A DNA stretch of 59,038 nt from a bacterium (GTDB lineage Bacteria > Patescibacteriota > Patescibacteriia > UBA9934): the NCBI GenBank assembly GCA_027592325.1, contig JAQCKO010000006.1:1-59038 (forward strand), read 5' to 3'. The notes beneath the pieces are model-generated. The model was not told the DNA's origin, made no database searches, and saw only the letters and a list, made by a program, of their open reading frames with translations. Below, in pieces: positions 34,259 through 44,977 of the stretch; within the stretch, counting starts at the first letter, position 1; each line of letters opens with the position of its first letter. The position numbers and the translations under genes are program-made.

Positions 34259-35380
34259 TTAATGCCTTGCCGTTAAATACACTCCCTCCACCTGCTCTGC
34301 AACCTTATCCCAAGAAAAATCATGCTCAACAATCGCGCGTGCCTCTTCCCCACCATCATGAACACGCGATGTACTCCGAAGAAGCGACTGAAGCTTTTTC
34401 GTTAAATCATCCACATCTCCTTTCTTAAATGTCTCCCCGGATTGCTTAATCGCCTCTTTATTCCCTGCGATATCGGAAACAAGCGGCATCACCCCCGCTG
34501 CCATTGCTTCGAGCACGACAACAGGCAAACCTTCTGAATCGGAAGGATGTACATACAAATATGCTCCGGCAAAAATCTTCTCTACCACATCATGTGGCTG
34601 CCTTCCTAAAAACCGAATCCGATCATCCCCATCCGCTAGGGCAAATAATGCATCAACATAGCGAGCAGTATCGCTTGTATCGCCAACGAGAACGAGTCTG
34701 CGAGTCGTTCTCAGTCGTCGAAACGCCTCAATTAAATAATGTAGGCCTTTTTCTGGCACAAGGCGTCCTACAAACAGGATATACTCTTTCGACTTGATGC
34801 TAAATGCGGCCAGCGCCTGGTCTAAGTCTTTTTTCTTATACGCAACAATCTCTGCGCCATTTGGTATATACACCACCTGTTTTCCGAATGTTTCGCGACA
34901 ATACATCTGAATTTCATGCGAGACGGCAATGGTGTAATGCGGAAAAAGCACTGAAGCACGCTCTGAACATCGCAAATACATCCGGCCAAATAACCCCCAT
35001 TTTGCATGTAACGCATCGCGCGCATGAAAGGTGGCGATGACAGTTGTTTTTGGTCGGAACAGCCGAACAAGCGCACCAAATGTTGACGCACCTACGCCGT
35101 GGTAATGAACAATGTCGTAAGGATGCAGGACTACGTGAAGCGTCGCAACAAAGGCATGTATACCAGCCTCAACCCCTTTTATTGGGATCGTTGGAAGATA
35201 GACAAGTGGAATAGTGTCGATATGCGACTCAGGCTTCGCATAGTATCGCCGACGCGCAGCAACTCGCACGGCATGACCAGCCTTAAGAAGTCGAAGCGAT
35301 ACTTGCCGCACATGCTCCTCAATGCCCCCAAAACGCGTTGCATCGCCAATACCTTTTTGTCCAATCATGAAAATACGCAT
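34259..35380 (-). CDS. Glycosyltransferase family 4
   Basis: GGIEEHV, VGRLVPEKG, PSDSEGLPVVVLEAM. Confidence 0.92.
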   Translation of the reverse strand: MRIFMIGQKGIGDATRFGGIEEHVRQVSLRLLKAGHAVRVAARRRYYAKPESHIDTIPLVYLPTIPIKGVEAGIHAFVATLHVVLHPYDIVHYHGVGASTFGALVRLFRPKTTVIATFHARDALHAKWGLFGRMYLRCSERASVLFPHYTIAVSHEIQMYCRETFGKQVVYIPNGAEIVAYKKKDLDQALAAFSIKSKEYILFVGRLVPEKGLHYLIEAFRRLRTTRRLVLVGDTSDTARYVDALFALADGDDRIRFLGRQPHDVVEKIFAGAYLYVHPSDSEGLPVVVLEAMAAGVMPLVSDIAGNKEAIKQSGETFKKGDVDDLTKKLQSLLRSTSRVHDGGEEARAIVEHDFSWDKVAEQVEGVYLTARH

Positions 35381-35697
35381 AGCAGAAGTATAACAAACCG
35401 TGTACCACCACACCTGGGCGTTAAAAGGGTGCTACATGAACCAAACGCTCCGTAACCAAGTTACGGAATGATGGGTTCATCGTTGATGTTAAACGAGCGA
35501 AGCGATTTTGTCACAACGTTCCGCAGTATGCGAAGTCCCGCCCTTCTTTATCAGCACAAACTTTCACTTCACAACAAATCTAATTTACCGCTTTAAACTC
35601 TCAATTTCAAGAGCGGGATTTGAGTGAAGTGAAGAAGAAATTATTGATTTTTTTCCTTAAATTTAGGGCTTTTTTTAATTTTTTTGTCCTTCGTAAC

Positions 35698-35726
35698 TTG
35701 ACAGGTGGGAAGAGGTCTGCTATGAT
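35698..35726 (+). promoter_or_regulatory. Sigma70 promoter with extended -10
   Basis: TTGACA-17-TATGAT preceded by TG. Confidence 0.75.
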
Positions 35727-35764
35727 GTAAAGTCGCAATTCCGCGACTAATGTAGGAGGACAAC

Positions 35765-36151
35765 ATGAAGTACGCTTTTGTTCGGTACGACGTAAATCGC
35801 AAGGTTGCCGATGGCGGCACCAGCTTCCATAGCGTTCTGATCAAGGGAGAGGCGTCTGAAACCCGCGAATCCTGCCAGAGGTGGATCGAGGAGAACTTCT
35901 CGCCCAACGGCCCGGTCAGGATCCTCTACCGATTCGAGGTACCGGAGGTGTGGACAGAGGATGCGGGCGAGTTCGACGGCTGCCTGAACAGCGCCCTCGA
36001 TGCGGTGACGGGTCTCGACGCACTCACTAACAGTCCTCTGGCGTCCGACCTTCTCGGCGCGATCTTCATGGCGGGGTTCACCTGTGGTATGAGGTTCGAC
36101 TCGGAACTGCAGTCGGCGTTCTACCGAGGTGGCGCAGCCAAGAATAAGTAG
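35765..36151 (+). CDS. Hypothetical protein (antisense minigene inside S1)
   Basis: 128 aa, SD AGGAGG, own promoter, hairpin CGCCCTGTTC/GGACAGGGCG at about 36174-36203. Confidence 0.8.
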   Translation: MKYAFVRYDVNRKVADGGTSFHSVLIKGEASETRESCQRWIEENFSPNGPVRILYRFEVPEVWTEDAGEFDGCLNSALDAVTGLDALTNSPLASDLLGAIFMAGFTCGMRFDSELQSAFYRGGAAKNK

Positions 36152-36296
36152 CTATCGTGTACTTCCGTCAAAGACGCCCTGTTCGAGACATCTTGGACAG
36201 GGCGCTTCACTTTCTGAGAGAAAAAATTGAAAAGAGCCCAATTAAAAATGAAAAGCAAAATCAATAATTTCTTCTTCACGCAACCGCATACTCAGT

Positions 36297-36382
36297 GTTG
36301 TGCGATGTCGCGTAGCGATGAGCACGACAGCGACGATAGGCGCCGCCGTTGTGACGAAGAAGCGAAGCGATTTTGTCACAAC
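36297..36382. repeat. Empty micro-cassette module B + mini-site + D
   Basis: Same module at 43499-43584 and 44632-44717. Confidence 0.8.
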
Positions 36383-36472
36383 GTTTCTGCATATGCGATG
36401 TTTTGCGTAGCAAATATGGGTGAATTGAGTAGGAGGTACGACGACGAACGGACCGCATATTCTGTGTTAGGC
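36376..36472. repeat. attC-like site S2
   Basis: TCACAAC..ATATGCG / CGCATAT..GTTAGGC. Confidence 0.75.
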
Positions 36473-36489
36473 GATGGATAAATAATTTT

Positions 36490-36927
36490 CTATCTATTCA
36501 TGTGAATTGCCAAAACCGTCGGTCTCAATCCTAAAGCGCGGCAGCCGAGGAGTCTGGAATCTCCTGCTAGTAAGTTTGGTTGGTGTCCTTCTCGGAAAAG
36601 AACTACAGGAGCGGGTATGACTGCACCGTTCCTGAGTCCATCTTCGATTTTTTGAAAATCACGTTTGCCTTCCAGATGCTCATGTATTTGTTCACTTGTC
36701 CATGTTGTGTCTCGAGAATCACAATTTTTCATATTTTCCCACTCTTCATCACTAAGCTCCTGTAGCTCTGCTCGTTTGAATGCTTCGATAAGGGAATTAA
36801 GAGCAATTCCAGACTCCTTGGCATGTCTTTCAAGTTCTCCCATTTCTTCTGCAAGTGATGGTTTTAGCCATTGAGGTTTTGGCAATTCATTTTCTGCGCC
36901 AGCTTCATATGATGGAAATTCACTCAT
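36490..36927 (-). CDS. Cassette hypothetical protein (possible ParB/Srx-like C-terminal motif)
   Basis: 145 aa; APVVL...LLAGDSRL loosely resembles ParB-N. Confidence 0.7.
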   Translation of the reverse strand: MSEFPSYEAGAENELPKPQWLKPSLAEEMGELERHAKESGIALNSLIEAFKRAELQELSDEEWENMKNCDSRDTTWTSEQIHEHLEGKRDFQKIEDGLRNGAVIPAPVVLFREGHQPNLLAGDSRLLGCRALGLRPTVLAIHMNR

Positions 36928-36956
36928 ATTGATAGTTTAAAAATTTTAAATCTTTC

Positions 36957-37045
36957 GCCTAACGGCGGCGCCTGATGCGATCGTTTCGAGAGATAAAACC
37001 GAAGGTTTTAGATCGAGAAATGTCGCATAGGCGCTGCCGTTGTGA
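36957..37045. repeat. attC-like site S3 (type A)
   Basis: AACGGCGGCGCCTGATGCGA...TCGCATAGGCGCTGCCGTT; followed by D at 37039-37073. Confidence 0.8.
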
Positions 37046-37066
37046 CGAAGAAGCGAAGCGATTTCG

Positions 37067-37184
37067 TCACAACGTTCGCGCATATGCAGAGTTGTTGCGC
37101 GGTACAATTTAGCGCGGAGCGCTCTACCGCGCAACAATTTGGGTGAGCGACCGCAAGGAGCGAACTGCATATGCGCTGTTGTAC
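37067..37184. repeat. attC-like site S4
   Basis: CGCATATGCAG / CTGCATATGCG arms. Confidence 0.78.
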
Positions 37185-37198
37185 GATGTGCGGCTTTC

Positions 37199-37609
37199 TT
37201 ATTCTTTTACCGGTGTTCCTTGGTGAAATTTTAATTTCCAACCTTTCGGCGTTTTGACCCAGATAGAGCTTCTATTACCTACCTCTACTTCTCCATCATA
37301 CTCAACTTCGCTGGTGTAAGTAACCTGAATGACATCTTGGGCGATGGGGCGCATTTCAAAATTTTTAAAAGGTAGCCTTGCTTTGATTTCATCCCGACGT
37401 GCACCAAGCGTATCTTCCCGTTGGTATATGCGCCCCGATCGCCCGAATTCAAAAAAATCCGGAGCAAGTACACTTTCCATATATACTCTGTCAAATCGTG
37501 TTTCAGCTATCCACATTGAATCTTCAAGCTGCCTTAGTTTTTCACGGTCCTCCTTGCTAATCTCAATCTCTCGTTCGTGGCTCATAGCTAACTCTTTTTT
37601 TGAATTCAT
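37199..37609 (-). CDS. NTF2-like / DUF4440 family protein
   Basis: LAPDFFEFGRSG, RSSIW, WKLKFHQGT. Confidence 0.85.
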   Translation of the reverse strand: MNSKKELAMSHEREIEISKEDREKLRQLEDSMWIAETRFDRVYMESVLAPDFFEFGRSGRIYQREDTLGARRDEIKARLPFKNFEMRPIAQDVIQVTYTSEVEYDGEVEVGNRSSIWVKTPKGWKLKFHQGTPVKE

Positions 37610-37657
37610 ATGTCATTCAGGTTACGTTAGTAAATGATTTTAAGAAAGCCGCATTTC

Positions 37658-37798
37658 GTACAGCGGCGGCGTGTATGAGAAGTTTCGCCGACTTCCTTAT
37701 CCTTATTATAGAGGAAGTGAAATTTGGGTGAAAGAAAAAGTGCAACCTTTGAAAATTATTACGCATTTTTTTCTTGAACCTCATACACGCTGTTATGT
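37658..37798. repeat. attC-like site S5 (R box degenerate: AGC)
   Basis: GCGTGTATGAG / CTCATACACGC arms; closely similar to S6. Confidence 0.72.
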
Positions 37799-38359
37799 GC
37801 TGTTGGTTGCCGATTTAATCGCACTGAATATTGAATGATAATCAATACTTTCAAAGTCGGTAGTGTCTATGTCAAAAACTTTGCCTCCTATATTAAGGGC
37901 CCGATATTCGCCTTTTAGTAGAACTTCTTTGAACTCATCATAGTTTTGATCGTCAACGTGACCTGGATGACGCTCGCGAGATTCCGAACGCTTTTTGAAA
38001 CGCTCAAAGAGAATTTCGCCGTCGGTTTTGCACATTACTTGCATTGCCTGAAAATCATATTTTTTCTGCAAATCAAGGAATCTCTCTTCGTCATATTCAG
38101 GTTTCAGTGGTGTTTCTATGATGAATGAATTTTTTGACTCTAGCAGCGTTTCGATGAGGTGATAGAGAATGTTATAACTTGCAATCCCTAGCTTCTTTGA
38201 CCATTCACGATCTTTCACGCCAAGAGAATCAAAGAGAGATTCCTTGATGTCATCACGACTAATTAAAGGCAGGCGAAATTCTCGTGCTATTTTCTTTGCA
38301 AGAGTCGTTTTTCCGGTACACGGAGGGCCCGATATTATTAAAAGCAAAGTTTTTGACAT
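37793..38359 (-). CDS. P-loop kinase (AAA_33-like)
   Basis: IISGPPCTGKTT; stop TAA inside the GCACATAAC R box. Confidence 0.85.
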   Translation of the reverse strand: MSKTLLLIISGPPCTGKTTLAKKIAREFRLPLISRDDIKESLFDSLGVKDREWSKKLGIASYNILYHLIETLLESKNSFIIETPLKPEYDEERFLDLQKKYDFQAMQVMCKTDGEILFERFKKRSESRERHPGHVDDQNYDEFKEVLLKGEYRALNIGGKVFDIDTTDFESIDYHSIFSAIKSATNST

Positions 38360-38389
38360 GTTTTTATTTTAACTTAGGCAACCAATTGC

Positions 38390-38531
38390 ACATAACGTTT
38401 GCGTGTGTGAGAAGTTTCGCCGACTTTCTTCATTTTATAAATAGAGGGGGCGAAATTTGGGTGAAAGAAATAGTGCAACCTTTGAAAATTATTACGCATT
38501 TTTTTCTTGAACCTCATACACGATGTTGTAC
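38390..38531. repeat. attC-like site S6
   Basis: CGTGTGTGAG / CTCATACACG arms. Confidence 0.78.
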
Positions 38532-38908: not shown

Positions 38909-39036
38909 TCACAACGTTTCTGACATGCGAAGTTGAAAACCCCCGCCTCCTAGTTCAATCTTATCAATAAGAGCAGGGTTTTCAATTTGGGTGAGGGCTT
39001 TCATAAAAAGCCCGAACCACATGTCCAGTGTTAGCT
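38909..39036. repeat. attC-like site S7
   Basis: GACATG / CATGTC arms; AATTTGGGTG...AACC core. Confidence 0.72.
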
Positions 39037-39205
39037 GAAATATTCCTTTTCTTTTCCTACGATAGTCGGTTGTTTTGAAAATTTTCAAATTTCTTTTCGA
39101 CAATGAGGAGGAAGAGCGAATATTAACAATTTAACACACAAATGGTAGTTTGTAATGTCATTTCTTGACCCGATCAGCTGTGGTTAGCTGGTATTGGAGG
39201 AGTCC

Positions 39206-39589
39206 ATGAATCGCACGATCAGGCTGACCGAGCTGTCTTTCGAGGACGGCATCACCAGACGGGACTCTGAGGTGAAGTACTTCGTTCAGGCGGAGTACAG
39301 CTACGTGGAAAATGAGGTCATCATGGGCCTTTACGCTGGTGACGAACACTTCGACCGAGTGTGGAGCTTTCCGATCGAGCTCCTGCTCGAGGGCCGAGTG
39401 GTCGACTTCAGCAACTTTGAAGGCCCTTACATCCTCGCCGATGCAGTACTTGCAATCGTCGCCGAGAACACGTCCGTCAGGCTCCACTTCGTGGAGGACC
39501 GAAGCGTAGTTAGCATCACGGTTTGTGATGAGACCGTCTCTCACCCTCTGGACAACGACGTGGCTCGCCGGATGTTCAGAGGGATCTGA
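39206..39589 (+). CDS. Hypothetical protein (antisense cassette minigene)
   Basis: SD GGAGGAG at 39196, ATG 39206; hairpin GAACCGCCTAC/GTGGGCGGTTC downstream. Confidence 0.8.
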   Translation: MNRTIRLTELSFEDGITRRDSEVKYFVQAEYSYVENEVIMGLYAGDEHFDRVWSFPIELLLEGRVVDFSNFEGPYILADAVLAIVAENTSVRLHFVEDRSVVSITVCDETVSHPLDNDVARRMFRGI

Positions 39590-39723
39590 CCTCCGATCGA
39601 CTCCCCGCCCCCTACGAACCGCCTACTGGTTCATCTGGTGGGCGGTTCTTCGTTTTAGAAAGAAATTTGAAAATTTTAAAACAATTGGGCGACAGCCCAG
39701 AAAAGAAAAGGAATATTTCAGCT

Positions 39724-39780
39724 AACAGCGACGATAGGCGCCGCCGTTGTGACGAAGAAGCGAAGCGGTTTCGTCACAAC
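39724..39780. repeat. Mini-site + empty micro-cassette D
   Basis: AACAGCGACGATAGGCGCCGCCGTT then GTTGTGACGAA...TTCGTCACAAC. Confidence 0.78.
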
Positions 39781-41755: not shown

Positions 41756-41832
41756 TCACAACGTCAGTTGTATCTGATGTTGCGAAGCAAATATGGGTGG
41801 AACGTAGCGGAACCGCATAGCCAGTGTTATGT
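41756..41832. repeat. attC-like site S10
   Basis: TCACAAC...GGGTG..AACCGCATAGCCAGTGTTATGT. Confidence 0.7.
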
Positions 41833-41858
41833 GCAATACCCTTCGTCCGTCATCTTTG

Positions 41859-42677
41859 TCATAGCAAACCTTTACCAGAATTGATAACAATGATTTTATC
41901 TTCCTTTTTTATTTTCAAATCTGACAACACCCCAAATACAATAGCACTGGAAGGCTCACATTTGATGTATTTTTTTGCAAGTGAGTAGGCTTGTTTTATT
42001 GTTTCTTCTGACAATCTAATTACTTTGTGTTTGCGCCAAAATATTGATTTCATTTTTGAGGAATAAGGTGTCCAGGGAGTGTGAAGTTTATCAGCAAAAG
42101 ACGGACTACTTTTTGGCGCAACACCAATAAGCGTGGTATTCAATTTGTATTTTTTTATTCCATTAAACAAGCCTGCGAACGTCTCGCCGCTACCCACTGG
42201 CGTGATTAAAAAATTTGGCCGGCTGTTTTTGATTTCTTTGATGATGTCCTCATATGCATCGTGCCAGCCATTAGTCACGTCCCAGATGACTTCCTCGTCA
42301 GTTTCTCTCGCCAAAGAAATAACCTCTTCAGGTTTGAGTATGTGAGATGACAAATCAACCTGAATAACTTTGCAAGAAACGGTGACGAGATTTTCGTAAA
42401 TTGTGGCAGGAAGTTTTTTATCAACAATACAGACGACTTTAAGATTGGAGCCGTTGGCAAATTTGGCGAGAGAAACGCCAGCATTTCCGGACGTGATGAG
42501 TGCTAGCTTATCAATATGTTCATCCAGCGCTTTCTTGACGATAGCTTCGGAGCGCCTATCTTTGTATGTCCCAAATGGATTTTTAGACTCGTCTTTAATA
42601 AAAAGATTAGGCAGACCAAATTTTTTACAAAAATATTCTTCTTTAATTAAGGGGGTGTTGCCTGATTTATATTTCAT
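41859..42677 (-). CDS. PLP-dependent fold-type II enzyme (threonine synthase/cysteine synthase-like)
   Basis: GNTPLI, KDESKNPFGTYKDR, TSGNAG, PVGSGET, CEPSSA. Confidence 0.88.
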   Translation of the reverse strand: MKYKSGNTPLIKEEYFCKKFGLPNLFIKDESKNPFGTYKDRRSEAIVKKALDEHIDKLALITSGNAGVSLAKFANGSNLKVVCIVDKKLPATIYENLVTVSCKVIQVDLSSHILKPEEVISLARETDEEVIWDVTNGWHDAYEDIIKEIKNSRPNFLITPVGSGETFAGLFNGIKKYKLNTTLIGVAPKSSPSFADKLHTPWTPYSSKMKSIFWRKHKVIRLSEETIKQAYSLAKKYIKCEPSSAIVFGVLSDLKIKKEDKIIVINSGKGLL

Positions 42678-42748
42678 AATGACAAAATCATTGTGACATT
42701 GTATAAAAACATTTCTACAATGTCAGCAATAAGGACGAAGGGCATTGC

Positions 42749-42900
42749 ACATAACGGCGGCGCCTGATGCGATCGTTTCGAGAGATAAAACCGAAGGTTT
42801 TAGATCGAGAAATGTCGCATAGGCGCTGTTGCGACCAACGGGAGCGAGAATGTAGGTGAAGGCCGAGCCGAGGCCTGAACCGCATATCGTGCTGTTAGGC
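42749..42900. repeat. attC-like sites S11 (type A) and S12 separated by a 12-nt body
   Basis: Type A at 42753-42830; GTTGCGACCAAC at 42828-42839; S12 ends AACCGCATATCGTGCTGTTAGGC. Confidence 0.7.
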
Positions 42901-43012
42901 GAGGGTTCATTTTGGCTTCCTTATTATTTAATCAAGAAAAGATCCAAAATGAAAGCGCAGCGCCCCCTTACGTTTATTTTTCCAAACTGCTTTTCACACC
43001 AGCTTTCGCTAC

Positions 43013-43041
43013 TTGACAGTTTGCCCACCTCATGGTAATCT
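43013..43041 (+). promoter_or_regulatory. Sigma70 promoter with extended -10
   Basis: TTGACA-17-TAATCT preceded by TG. Confidence 0.7.
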
Positions 43042-43099
43042 GCAACGTCCTTTGGACTGCGCCTCAAGTGGGGCGTAAACCCGCACTTTGGAAGAAGAA

Positions 43100-43303
43100 A
43101 TGAAAGTCAAGACTTTCGTGGTCGGATTGGTCGATGGGGTGGTCCCATCGTTGACACGACTCGACGAATGCGTCGCCGAGCTCGGTAATGTCGTCATCCA
43201 CAGCTTGGTCGACACCGTCTACTCGGCGGATAGCAATTCGTTAGGAAGACCGCCGGGTGAGCGCATCGCTCGAGTGATCGTCTACACACCCGAGAGCAGG
43301 TAG
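43100..43303 (+). CDS. 67-aa hypothetical protein (antisense cassette minigene)
   Basis: Own promoter; hairpin CCCGTGTTTG/CAAACACGGG downstream. Confidence 0.7.
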   Translation: MKVKTFVVGLVDGVVPSLTRLDECVAELGNVVIHSLVDTVYSADSNSLGRPPGERIARVIVYTPESR

Positions 43304-43419
43304 CCCCCCGTGTTTGCACGCAACATCGTCAAACACGGGCGGGCAAACACATTCACTCTACCGAGTGTTTTTTTATTGTACAAAATTTTCATGAAAAGCG
43401 ATTTGATAAAATAAATGTC

Positions 43420-43584
43420 GCCTAACGGCGGCGCCTGATGCGATCGTTTCGAGAGATAAAACCGAAGTTTTTAGATCGAGAAATGTCGCATAGGCGCTGT
43501 TGTGCGATGTCGCGTAGCGATGAGCACGACAGCGACGATAGGCGCCGCCGTTGTGACGAAGAAGCGAAGTGATTTCGTCACAAC
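43420..43584. repeat. attC-like S13 (type A) + B + mini-site + D
   Basis: Near-identical to 44553-44717. Confidence 0.82.
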
Positions 43585-43687
43585 GTTTATGAATATCTGA
43601 TGTTTTCATCCCGTTTCATGGAGATAAAGTTTATTTTTCAGGCATTCTTTGTTCGTAAATATTCCGCCCAGATATTCATTGTTATGT
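43578..43687. repeat. attC-like site S14
   Basis: ATGAATATCTG / CAGATATTCAT arms. Confidence 0.78.
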
Positions 43688-43731
43688 GATGTAGCCAGAA
43701 ATTTCTATTCCTAAATTATTTTGTTGGTAAT

Positions 43732-44002
43732 TTATTGTTTGACTTCGATGCTTTCCGAAGCAATATTTTTTTGCTTATCTTTCTTGCCCACGACTAATTG
43801 ATAGATTTTTCTTACAACAATAATGAATACTACAAACCCTACAATTTCAGCGACTGCCTCAAGATTTGCTGCTGCCCTTGGGCCTGAAATTCCCATCGGA
43901 CCTAACACAAATGGCCCAGACAATAAAAGCGTGTATTTAGCGATCATCCATGCGACGTAACCTACTAATACACTTGCGATACCTCCGAGTATTTTTTTTC
44001 AT
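43732..44002 (-). pseudogene. Small membrane protein cassette, frameshifted in an A8 run right after ATG
   Basis: ATG 44002 + A8 is out of frame with KKILGGIASVLVGYVAWMIAKY...; A7 would give a ~89-aa two-TM protein. Confidence 0.6.
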
Positions 44003-44114
44003 AAGCTTTTGAATAACGTTATGTAATTGGTTAAATTTTATCACAAGCTATGTTCGACCTGAAATAAATTGCCAAAAAAATCTAAAAAATAATAAAGAAA
44101 TTTCTGGCTATTTC

Positions 44115-44192
44115 ACATAACGTTTCTGAATATCTGAAGTTGCGATAGCAATTTGGGTGAAGCGAAGCGGAACCAGATATTCAGTGTTATCG
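44115..44192. repeat. attC-like site S15
   Basis: CTGAATATCTG / CAGATATTCAG arms. Confidence 0.8.
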
Positions 44193-44203
44193 GATGTAAT
44201 TTT

Positions 44204-44527
44204 TTATTTATCTTTTTTCAGCCATGCATTGCTGATCCACTTTTTATCAATAGCTTCTTCTAAGTCGATACCGAGAAGATGAGCATTGACCATTGCCATA
44301 CCAACAACATCAGCAAGCTCTTTTGCCACCTCTCTTTTTGAAACATCTTCCGTCACATGTTTCTCTGGACGACTCTTTTTTCTATGAATCAAAACTGCTT
44401 GCGAAAATTCACCAACCTCTTCATATAATTTTATCAATGCGAAATCTTCGTCAATTTCAACATCATACTCCTTACCGTAACGGATAGCATTCTCCACTAC
44501 TTTTTGTTGTATATCTTTGAATTTCAT
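44204..44527 (-). CDS. MazG-like nucleotide pyrophosphohydrolase
   Basis: KLYEEVGEFSQA, KELADVV, DLEEAIDKKW. Confidence 0.85.
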   Translation of the reverse strand: MKFKDIQQKVVENAIRYGKEYDVEIDEDFALIKLYEEVGEFSQAVLIHRKKSRPEKHVTEDVSKREVAKELADVVGMAMVNAHLLGIDLEEAIDKKWISNAWLKKDK

Positions 44528-44552
44528 AAAAAGAAAAATTAAAAATTATTTC

Positions 44553-44717
44553 CGATAACGGCGGCGCCTGATGCGATCGTTTCGAGAGATAAAACCGAAG
44601 GTTTTAGATCGAGAAATGTCGCATAGGCACTGTTGTGCGATGTCGTGTAGCGATGAGCACGACAGCGACGATAGGCGCCGCCGTTGTGACGAAAAAGCGA
44701 AGCGATTTCGTCACAAC
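44553..44717. repeat. attC-like S16 (type A) + B + mini-site + D
   Basis: First module of the array in transcription order. Confidence 0.82.
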
Positions 44718-44901: not shown

Positions 44902-44977
44902 TGGTGCGCCGGGTGGGATTCGAACCCACGACCACGGGCTTAAAAGGCCCTTGCTCTACCAACTGAGCTACCAGCGC
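44902..44977 (-). tRNA. tRNA-Lys(UUU)
   Basis: 76-nt cloverleaf, anticodon TTT, TTCGAAT T-loop, encoded CCA. Confidence 0.97.

Follow-up and report, generated by a model that had tools for sequence, protein, structure and literature searches.

The window, as the whole stretch of 59,038 nucleotides (nt) analysed here is called, derives from a bacterium of the Patescibacteriota and contains, at about 35.48-44.72 kb, an array of repeated, imperfectly palindromic sites together with small genes on the - strand. At the left end of this array, positions 35511-36303 form a single site resembling attC, the recombination site of integron cassettes, which extends over 793 nt and holds a complete small gene within its second hairpin. 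Approximately 16 sites were counted at 35.5-44.7 kb, and ten of them share a plan on the + strand that consists of AAC, a 6-8-nt spacer, a 7-10-nt box, AAG, hairpin 1, the linker ATTTGGGTGA, and hairpin 2, followed by GAAC, a box complementary to the first, a 3-6-nt spacer, and GTT. This commonest architecture of the array (R', L', hairpin 1, linker, hairpin 2, L'', R'') is named S1, and its ATTTGGGTGA-like linker is present in ten + strand copies within 35.6-44.2 kb. A second site family (D2) and a small hairpin flanked by R boxes (D3) occur in 5 or 6 copies each. Because the genes end beside the GTT side, the cassette (top) strand corresponds to the - strand of the window and the bottom strand to its + strand.

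The composite site at 35511-36303 follows the S1 architecture, with spacers of 7 nt between R' and L' and 4 nt between L'' and R'', as in the other sites of the array. Its hairpin 2 occupies 651 nt, comprising a clamp and its loop, compared with 8-43 nt in the other nine sites. The clamp is an inverted repeat of 23 nt, 100% complementary, with 605 nt between its arms, of which about 1e-8 would be expected by chance per 1.2 kb, and imperfect pairing continues inward for approximately 40 base pairs (bp), to about 35692 / 36216. Inside lies an expression unit, consisting of a promoter, a Shine-Dalgarno (SD) sequence, an open reading frame (ORF), and a terminator, which is encoded on the + strand and is therefore antisense to the cassette genes on the - strand. 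The G+C content reaches 57% from promoter to terminator and 59% in the ORF, against 23-26% in the clamp and 45% in the window. The original prediction had described most of this anatomy, and its account held throughout: the AAC and GTT arms and the L boxes match with array-like spacing (8 of 8 L positions pair, with 7- and 4-nt spacers), the first hairpin, the linker, and the perfect inverted repeat 35629-35651/36257-36279 are where it had placed them, and the loop of about 600 nt does contain the promoter at 35698-35726, the SD sequence, an ORF of 128 amino acids (aa), and the terminator, all antisense to the array. The parts of the site are as follows, with L numbers denoting contigs retrieved in the searches described below.

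35511-35517, + strand: R' box TCACAAC (GTTGTGA on the cassette strand), with AAC at 35515-35517
35516/35517, + strand: cassette boundary between AA and C; conservation among 11 composites begins exactly at AAC
35525-35532, + strand: L' box AGTATGCG, 8/8 pairing with 36285-36292
35533-35621, + strand: hairpin 1, core TCCCGC 35536-35541 / GCGGGA 35613-35618
35618-35627, + strand: linker ATTTGAGTGA, a form of the family motif ATTTGGGTGA
35629-35651, + strand: left arm of the perfect 23-bp clamp
35652-35692, + strand: left side of the inner, imperfect, AT-rich clamp, which aligns with the reverse complement of 36216-36256 and is paired in the minimum-free-energy (MFE) fold of both strands
35698-35726, + strand: sigma-70-like promoter TTGACA-17-TATGAT with an upstream TG, agreeing with the consensus at 11/12 positions
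35732-35747, + strand: small hairpin GTCGC-aattcc-GCGAC of the 5' untranslated region (UTR), kept in L036, L071, and L079
35755-35759, + strand: SD sequence GGAGG; the 5' UTR 35732-35759 is kept in the same three contigs (L036, L071, L079)
35765-36151, + strand: cargo ORF, 128 aa, 59% G+C, TAG stop, of no known family
36175-36204, + strand: intrinsic terminator, a 13-pair stem and a T-rich tail, with two subtypes kept across instances
36216-36256, + strand: right side of the inner imperfect clamp
36257-36279, + strand: right arm of the perfect 23-bp clamp
36280-36292, + strand: GCAAC (family motif GAAC) and the L'' box CGCATACT, L'' being 36285-36292
36297-36303, + strand: R'' box GTTGTGC, with GTT at 36297-36299, where the conservation of the composite ends
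36304-36383, + strand: cassette body of the composite site, short and ORF-free, up to the next R' box, with families D1 and D3, which are repeated in the array
36347-36383, + strand: hairpin GTTGTGACGAA...TTTGTCACAAC within the short cassette body

The long loop of hairpin 1 additionally carries a promoter-like sequence, TTGAAA-17-TAAATT, on the - strand from 35610 to 35582, which points in the cassette-sense direction. Of 17 S1 sites, 16 keep the hexamers of this element (TTGAAA-N17-TAAAAT) while the spacer varies, and the site that lacks the insert is among them. The claim that it drives the adjoining glycosyltransferase gene was dropped, since a terminator-like hairpin (35468 to 35448, - strand) stands between the two.

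Recurrence of the scaffold and its exchangeable cargo

The exact 128-aa protein was found on three contigs of the population represented by the window (two ENA assemblies and one Logan assembly), with identical structure in all of them. A search of one genome per species with a 21-mer of the repeat returned 58 loci, 49 of which look like chance single matches in unrelated taxa rather than paired arms; L046 (Falkowbacteria), the only such match that was read, is due to chance. The other nine loci are labelled as one contig of a 'Gammaproteobacteria' metagenome-assembled genome and eight of Patescibacteria, Magasanikbacteria, or Zambryskibacteria, and the composite is present in eight of the nine, all from species-representative genomes, the ninth being L046. 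These labels, together with the groundwater source, point to a relative of the Patescibacteria as the organism of the window. A 23-mer that reaches from the arm into the first bases of the inner part identified 14 metagenome contigs (L065-L078), each carrying the composite, which brings the other contigs with the composite scaffold to 22. Three search patterns gave no match in viral contigs, and none was obtained in plasmid and phage records.

BLAST aligned L032, L034, L036, L052, and L053 with the window at 81-93% identity over 35515-35770 and over 36174-36305, with no match in the interval, while L007 and L028 match the window on the right flank. The whole site measures about 620-780 nt in these relatives and the clamp-bounded unit 480-650 nt. 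The L' box of S1 with the start of hairpin 1 occurs 26 times among the fetched sequences, and in 25 of these the repeat comes next, at +104 or +105. The sole exception, at position 1476 of L069, has the same L boxes, the long loop of hairpin 1, the linker, and GAAC-L''-R'', but a hairpin 2 of only 20 nt, so that its left and right boxes are only about 150 nt apart; its hairpin-1 stem covaries with that of the window (CCGCGC/GCGCGG instead of TCCCGC/GCGGGA). This is the homologous site without the insert, and the comparison shows that hairpin 2 was replaced without target duplication; the original prediction, too, had seen no such duplication in the window. Both forms of S1 site that it had proposed to look for, with and without the insert, thus exist, and the short homologue in L069 together with the gene-bearing form in 22 other contigs bears out its proposal of cargo carried within the recombination site. 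By the same comparison, L' and L'' are halves of one site and not of two.

Incomplete forms of the scaffold were encountered as well. In L015, both parts of the clamp are joined directly, with no promoter, ORF, or terminator, and the right arm is decayed. At a second site in L069, the left half of the composite runs into unrelated genes of the chromosome.

Between the conserved flanks, 12 BLAST-distinct cargo ORFs of 63-128 aa were identified, which we count as at least 11 unrelated families, as the ORF of the window and the type found in L036 look related by eye in their C-terminal helices. The cargos have a G+C content of 47-61% within clamps of 23-26% G+C, and most of them end with a TAG stop and start 132-139 nt past the left arm. 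On the left side, conservation extends from the AAC of R' through L', hairpin 1, the linker, the clamp, the -35 and -10 elements, part of the 5' UTR, and the SD sequence to the ATG, the -35 hexamer being invariant and the -10 conserved across instances. On the right side, it resumes at the stop codon or directly past it and continues through the terminator, the clamp, and L'' to the GTT of R''. At this point of resumption, six instances, which carry five different cargos among them, have a G+C-rich element (CGCCCCGCCGCCCCGCTCATCA). The promoter and the terminator each come in two subtypes, found in varied combinations with the cargos, which indicates that frames and cargos have recombined.

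Searches of Pfam and PHROGs gave no match for the ORF of the window or for nine other cargos. The family of the window's ORF comprised 2 clusters in a word search and 12 in an exhaustive, profile-free scan of 1.8 billion representatives. An AlphaFold model of this cargo (13 sequences) reached a predicted local distance difference test (pLDDT) score of 77, and Foldseek found no match to it at E <= 0.001 in PDB or BFVD. The closest of its homologues, P0002 (64% identity), is encoded in a plain chromosomal context, flanked by a TrmB-like gene and rpsA and accompanied by neither an attC nor the repeat, which shows that the cargo gene is not tied to the scaffold. Another homologue, P0003 in L079, has the same promoter, UTR, and 3' element but belongs to an ordinary cassette body preceded by a complete short site; the expression module is hence older or wider than the placement in hairpin 2.

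Related arrangements are visible in the ordinary cassettes of the array. The flanks of one of them (43668-43740 and 44018-44121) are 86-92% identical in L034 and L007 with a different ORF between, so that such frames occur outside the hairpin-2 slot as well. Ordinary cassette bodies also hold two further small genes, at 39030-39727 (ORF 39217-39589) and 42893-43425 (ORF 43100-43303), which are antisense and G+C-rich and have promoters and terminators of their own. The former module is closed by a perfect 28-bp repeat that includes R boxes and by a second repeat of 23 bp, and its right flank recurs in L052.

Folding, mobility, and the recombinase of related loci

Sequence constraint was measured as the share of alignment cells that differ from the majority in 11 non-redundant instances of the composite. 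The clamp arms vary least (left 0.4%, right 0.8%), followed by the L boxes and the linker at about 2% (2.3% in the L' box), compared with 9% in the hairpin-1 loop and the inner clamp. Three changes were seen in the arms, all of them single and uncompensated; invariance at this level is compatible with pairing, protein binding, or both. The MFE folds of the two strands both contain the clamp (z = -7.9 and -5.5), and the mean pair probability of its 23 pairs is 0.89 on the bottom strand.

Pairing over long distances is also found elsewhere in the array. Eight cassette bodies were folded as single-stranded DNA, with z scores from mononucleotide shuffles: seven gave z of -5 to -15 and one -2.0, and all eight contain 29-62 pairs that span more than 60% of their length, next to 65 in the hairpin-2 unit. 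Five housekeeping controls of similar size gave z of -0.1 to -2.7, with 0-21 long-range pairs. Genes of this array lie in the loops of long clamps, which are usually rooted at the R boxes and, in the composite site, at hairpin 2. A proposed descent of the clamp from such an R-box clamp, in which its outer 7 nt (GTGAAGA / TCTTCAC) would be decayed R boxes homologous to the clamp of 39030-39727, was dropped; the collinear similarity noted by eye has z = 1.0-1.5 and does not rise above composition-preserving shuffles.

The clamps of the ordinary cassettes can be described separately. Nearly every cassette body is bracketed by an inverted repeat of 20-40 nt that includes the R boxes and reaches 13-33 nt beyond them. 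Perfect inverted repeats of 15-17 nt, of which about 0.01 would be expected by chance on a rough estimate, occur inside or at both ends of cassette coding regions. The small hairpin GTTGTGACGAA-12 nt-TTCGTCACAAC, with R boxes on both sides, is present in six copies in the window and looks like a cassette body with an empty loop; it is often joined to the second site family (GCCTAACGGCGGCGCC...), with pairing possible in two alternative registers (43407-43584). One type-1 site, 42828-42900, lacks the R'-L' arm; a GTT within its usual AAGTTGCGA segment is where it meets the end of a second-family site, a joint that may be the product of recombination at a secondary GTT. The positions of these features and of the borders of the array are listed here.

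36466-36963, 37174-37668, 37792-38396, 39029-39727, 41826-42755, 43681-44121, and 44186-44559: bracketed cassette bodies
36503-36517/36875-36889, 37320-37335/37610-37625, 38072-38088/38232-38248, 39995-40009/40978-40992, and 41329-41344/41577-41592: perfect repeats of coding regions
36347-36383, 37038-37073, 39745-39780, 43549-43584, and 44682-44717, plus 35481-35517 for a degenerate copy: small hairpin flanked by R boxes
34259-35413, - strand: GT4 glycosyltransferase gene, left border of the array
44905-44977, - strand: tRNA gene, right border of the array, followed by murG

Among the products of the array genes are an S66 peptidase, a serine hydrolase, a pyridoxal phosphate (PLP) enzyme, a DUF4440 protein, and an AAA_33 kinase-like protein. 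The only Rfam matches in the window are tRNAs (n=2). Tyrosine-recombinase motifs were absent from every ORF of at least 150 aa in the 59 kb and from ten ORFs scanned with Pfam, which are housekeeping genes.

Conservation among composites stops at both R boxes, at the AAC of R' and the GTT of R'', and the neighbours differ at every locus; the composite occupies the first cassette position next to the junction in L028 and L078 and the second in L034 and L007, and it stands last in the window. The population itself is polymorphic. L001 contains one extra cassette of 684 bp with a 143-aa ORF (L001 11189-11993, corresponding to 36953-37094 of the window), and this one clean indel has repeats of 142 nt at both sides, so that it could also be a product of homologous recombination. 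In L003 (from 6500), different cassettes stand to the right of window position 36383, which is the R' of the next site.

In L028, L078, L034, and L007, a tyrosine recombinase of 270-277 aa is encoded to the right of the array, on the + strand and divergent from the cassettes, behind a junction of AAC with TCGTT(T/A)TTAT (TCCTTTTTAT in L028). The array of the window ends with the same junction, AAC followed by TCGTTTTTAT, at 44717/44718, and there the tRNA gene follows instead of a recombinase gene. The best NCBIfam family for the recombinases of L028 and L078 is TIGR02249 (integron integrase), which they match in two stretches with 226-233 bits against a cutoff of 265, while the XerA-type model gives 217-218 against 220. 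Their best solved relative is VchIntIA (2a3v, E = 6e-48), of which about 30 residues (211-240 of the chain) remain unmatched, a region that we take to be the IntI-specific insertion contacting extrahelical bases. By sequence, the enzyme of the related loci is an atypical, short IntI-like recombinase that lacks this insertion. Consistent with such an enzyme, no bulged base is visible in the 8-bp L stem of S1 when the sequence is read, although the assignment of the boxes could be off; the only unpaired bases adjoining the stem are the AA after L', on the R'-L' arm.

Interpretations of the composite site

The recurrence of one scaffold around different genes is best explained, and with better than even probability in our estimation, by a mobile, integron-type cassette family of Patescibacteria-like bacteria whose attC carries an exchangeable expression slot. 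Under this explanation, the clamp would zip up when the bottom strand (the + strand of the window) becomes single-stranded, and would thereby bring the linker and L'' together across 480-650 nt. The R and L stems could then form, and R' would be cut between AA and C, just as happens with a short site. From its own promoter, the slot gene would be expressed at any position of the array, and recombination in the conserved flanks would bring different genes into the slot. From the comparison we infer that the long site is still able to recombine, that it is the clamp which enables it to do so, and that cargo is exchanged in this manner.

Several observations weigh against this explanation. The composite site is unchanged in strain variants while cassettes of the array differ, no recombination event of the long site itself was observed, and the window is without a recombinase. 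The module of L079 stands in an ordinary cassette body and is hence not tied to hairpin 2, and the explanation does not account for the start-to-stop precision with which ORFs enter the slot. The clamp arms never covary, and their invariance could reflect a protein-binding sequence instead of pairing. In a nearest-neighbour ensemble, a model that ignores the entropy of long loops and bound protein, the L stem has a mean pair probability of 0.33; scrambling the right arm, with or without the inner clamp, did not lower this value (0.27-0.46), so that the simplified model lends the explanation no support. Furthermore, with no extrahelical base in the site and no IntI insertion in the recombinase, the rules established for IntI1 and VchIntIA may not apply.

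Three of these points, the absence of an observed recombination of the long site, the constancy of the site in three strain variants whose adjoining cassettes differ and the failure of the thermodynamic test to indicate ready pairing of the arms, would be expected if the composite were a locked relic. It would then have arisen once, by insertion or by fusion of parts of neighbouring cassettes, would no longer recombine as one site, and would persist through a useful gene or useful promoters, its spread being only passive, alongside the cassettes next to it or through homologous recombination. The half site of L069 next to unrelated chromosomal genes and the decayed, gene-less form of L015 also fit such a history. 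Dead halves, however, would not be expected to retain variation of about 2% in the L boxes, linker, and R-proximal segments and below 1% in the arms, compared with 9% elsewhere, and the conservation ends exactly at the R boxes while the neighbours change and the composite moves between the first, second, and last positions of the array. A locked relic is accordingly regarded as unlikely.

The original prediction had offered, as the other possibility, an element like a miniature inverted-repeat transposable element (MITE). Such an element would be a site-specific, non-autonomous unit of 480-650 bp that is mobilised in trans, inserts into hairpin 2 of S1, and carries passenger genes. The perfect terminal repeats, more conserved than all their surroundings, the absence of a transposase inside, as in MITEs, and the S1 site without the unit in L069 are in line with it, and other elements, IS1111-attC and group IIC-attC introns, are known to target attC. 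An origin of this kind is historically plausible, as the unit stands where the homologue has a short hairpin 2, but the data lend no support to an active transposon. Target duplication is missing, the 20-nt hairpin 2 known from the homologue is gone and not merely interrupted, and copies elsewhere were not found; in all 22 other contigs the unit stands at an identical nucleotide of one and the same site family, which makes a free MITE unlikely. Single matches in unrelated taxa, with no paired arms (as read in L046 only), appear to account for the 49 remaining hits of the 21-mer, and viral contigs, plasmids, and phages gave no match. Swapping of ORFs within constant promoter and terminator flanks is not usual in MITEs, and equivalent clamps that include the R boxes enclose other cassettes of the array. 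Taken together, a MITE-like element is considered rather improbable. An assembly chimera or foldback artefact joining two broken sites, which the original prediction had named as a possible refutation, has a negligible chance of being correct; repeat-rich arrays are hard to assemble, and the contigs of L052, L067, L068, and L072 end inside the element, but three assemblies of the population have the same structure, and so do 22 other contigs from different projects and assemblers, in which its order and spacing are conserved.

The explanation by a mobile cassette family with an expression slot can be carried further, to a view of how cassettes arise that we hold to be speculative and of low probability. 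Cassettes could be built by loading an ORF into a pre-existing hairpin scaffold on an attC core, a process run by, or alongside, the short IntI-like recombinase; with the same slight likelihood, the loading scaffold would be the R-box-rooted clamp or the hairpin-2 clamp, and the recombinase would not read extrahelical bases. If this were true, the empty scaffolds, namely the six hairpins GTTGTGACGAA...TTCGTCACAAC with 12-nt loops and the gene-less hairpin of L015, would be footprints of cassette creation, as would the frames kept around unrelated ORFs and the replacement of cargos from start to stop. The literature still describes the mechanism of cassette creation as unknown (PMC4889954). Empty scaffolds, and the frames kept around ORFs that are unrelated, offer concrete sequence material for asking how cassettes arise.

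Comparison with known systems

An integron cassette is defined as a gene with a short recombination site, and detection tools as well as thinking in the field assume an attC of up to about 150-200 nt. The composite site is 4-5 times longer, carries its payload inside the fold, and recurs with interchangeable genes, which suggests that the terminal structure of an attC can be used to hold cargo. Such cassettes will escape standard searches, as probably will the entire integron-like system of this large, uncultured lineage, the recombinase of which scores below the cutoff of the IntI model. The scaffold may also be viewed as a natural design for an insulated expression unit within a single-strand recombination site. 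In a full-text literature search whose coverage excluded subscription journals, no description was found of attC integrons in Patescibacteria, or of genes inside attC other than introns and insertion sequences (IS).

Mobile DNA inside attC sites is familiar from group IIC-attC introns and IS1111-attC elements, which sometimes bring outward promoters. These encode a reverse transcriptase or a transposase and have a ribozyme or IS ends, neither of which is present in the composite unit; they insert near the R''/L'' side, unlike the composite unit, which has variable cargo and plain 23-bp ends and replaces hairpin 2. MITEs resemble the unit in small size, perfect terminal inverted repeats, and lack of a transposase, but the composite unit is without a target duplication, contains a complete, exchangeable expression unit, and has a single invariant location; although inverted repeats are present, all copies lie at one position of one site family. 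Phage morons likewise consist of a promoter, a small gene, and a terminator with a G+C content (57% here) deviating from the surroundings, but the composite unit is embedded in a recombination site and has no match in viral contigs or phage records.

Reverse-oriented cassettes with a promoter of their own, such as toxin-antitoxin cassettes, are found in sedentary chromosomal integrons. They share with the composite an antisense gene, its own promoter, and expression independent of the position in the array; their genes, however, lie between R' and R'' in the cassette body, whereas the composite has a single small ORF between the linker and L'', in a conserved and reusable frame. The modules at 39030-39727 and 42893-43425 of the window, located in cassette bodies, are of this ordinary kind.

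Canonical attC sites are roughly 57-141 bp long, and canonical integron cassettes share with those of the window one orientation, boundaries at the R' box, and, in related loci, an attI-like junction beside a divergently oriented recombinase. They differ in that the payload here is inside the terminal structure and the body is an ORF-free stretch of 80-110 nt, and also in the 793-nt length of the site, the recombinase of relatives without the IntI-specific insertion, and the lack of a visible extrahelical base. As defined by Cury et al. (PMC4889954), a CALIN, or attC cluster devoid of integron integrases, has at least two attC sites and no integron integrase nearby, and the window, with about 16 sites at 35.5-44.7 kb and no recombinase within 59 kb, corresponds to this definition. 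A complete integron, with intI divergent from the cassettes and attI between them, is absent from the window. Described terminal structures range from 3 nt to the 65-nt branched structure of the Vibrio cholerae repeat (VCR) site, and replacement of the latter by three bases had little effect in IntI1 assays (PMC2727003). The terminal structure of attC thus tolerates change, which makes a clamped insert plausible, canonical integrases having been used in those assays. Extrahelical bases of the L stem, on the R''-L'' arm, mark the bottom strand of canonical sites (PMC2727003), and the composite site has none in its perfect 8-bp L stem; the recombinases of L028 and L078 lack the additional domain of IntI and fall below the TIGR02249 cutoff. 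The order of boxes is that of an attC, an imperfect palindrome whose outer R boxes (RYYYAAC / GTTRRRY) are set off by an unpaired spacer from inner, paired L boxes, with TCACAAC, 7 nt, and AGTATGCG on one side and CGCATACT, 4 nt, and GTTGTGC on the other, a plan shared by ten sites. Since this box plan is kept while length, extrahelical bases, and recombinase depart from the canonical pattern, the composite is best described as a variant of the integron cassette and not as a member of the canonical family.

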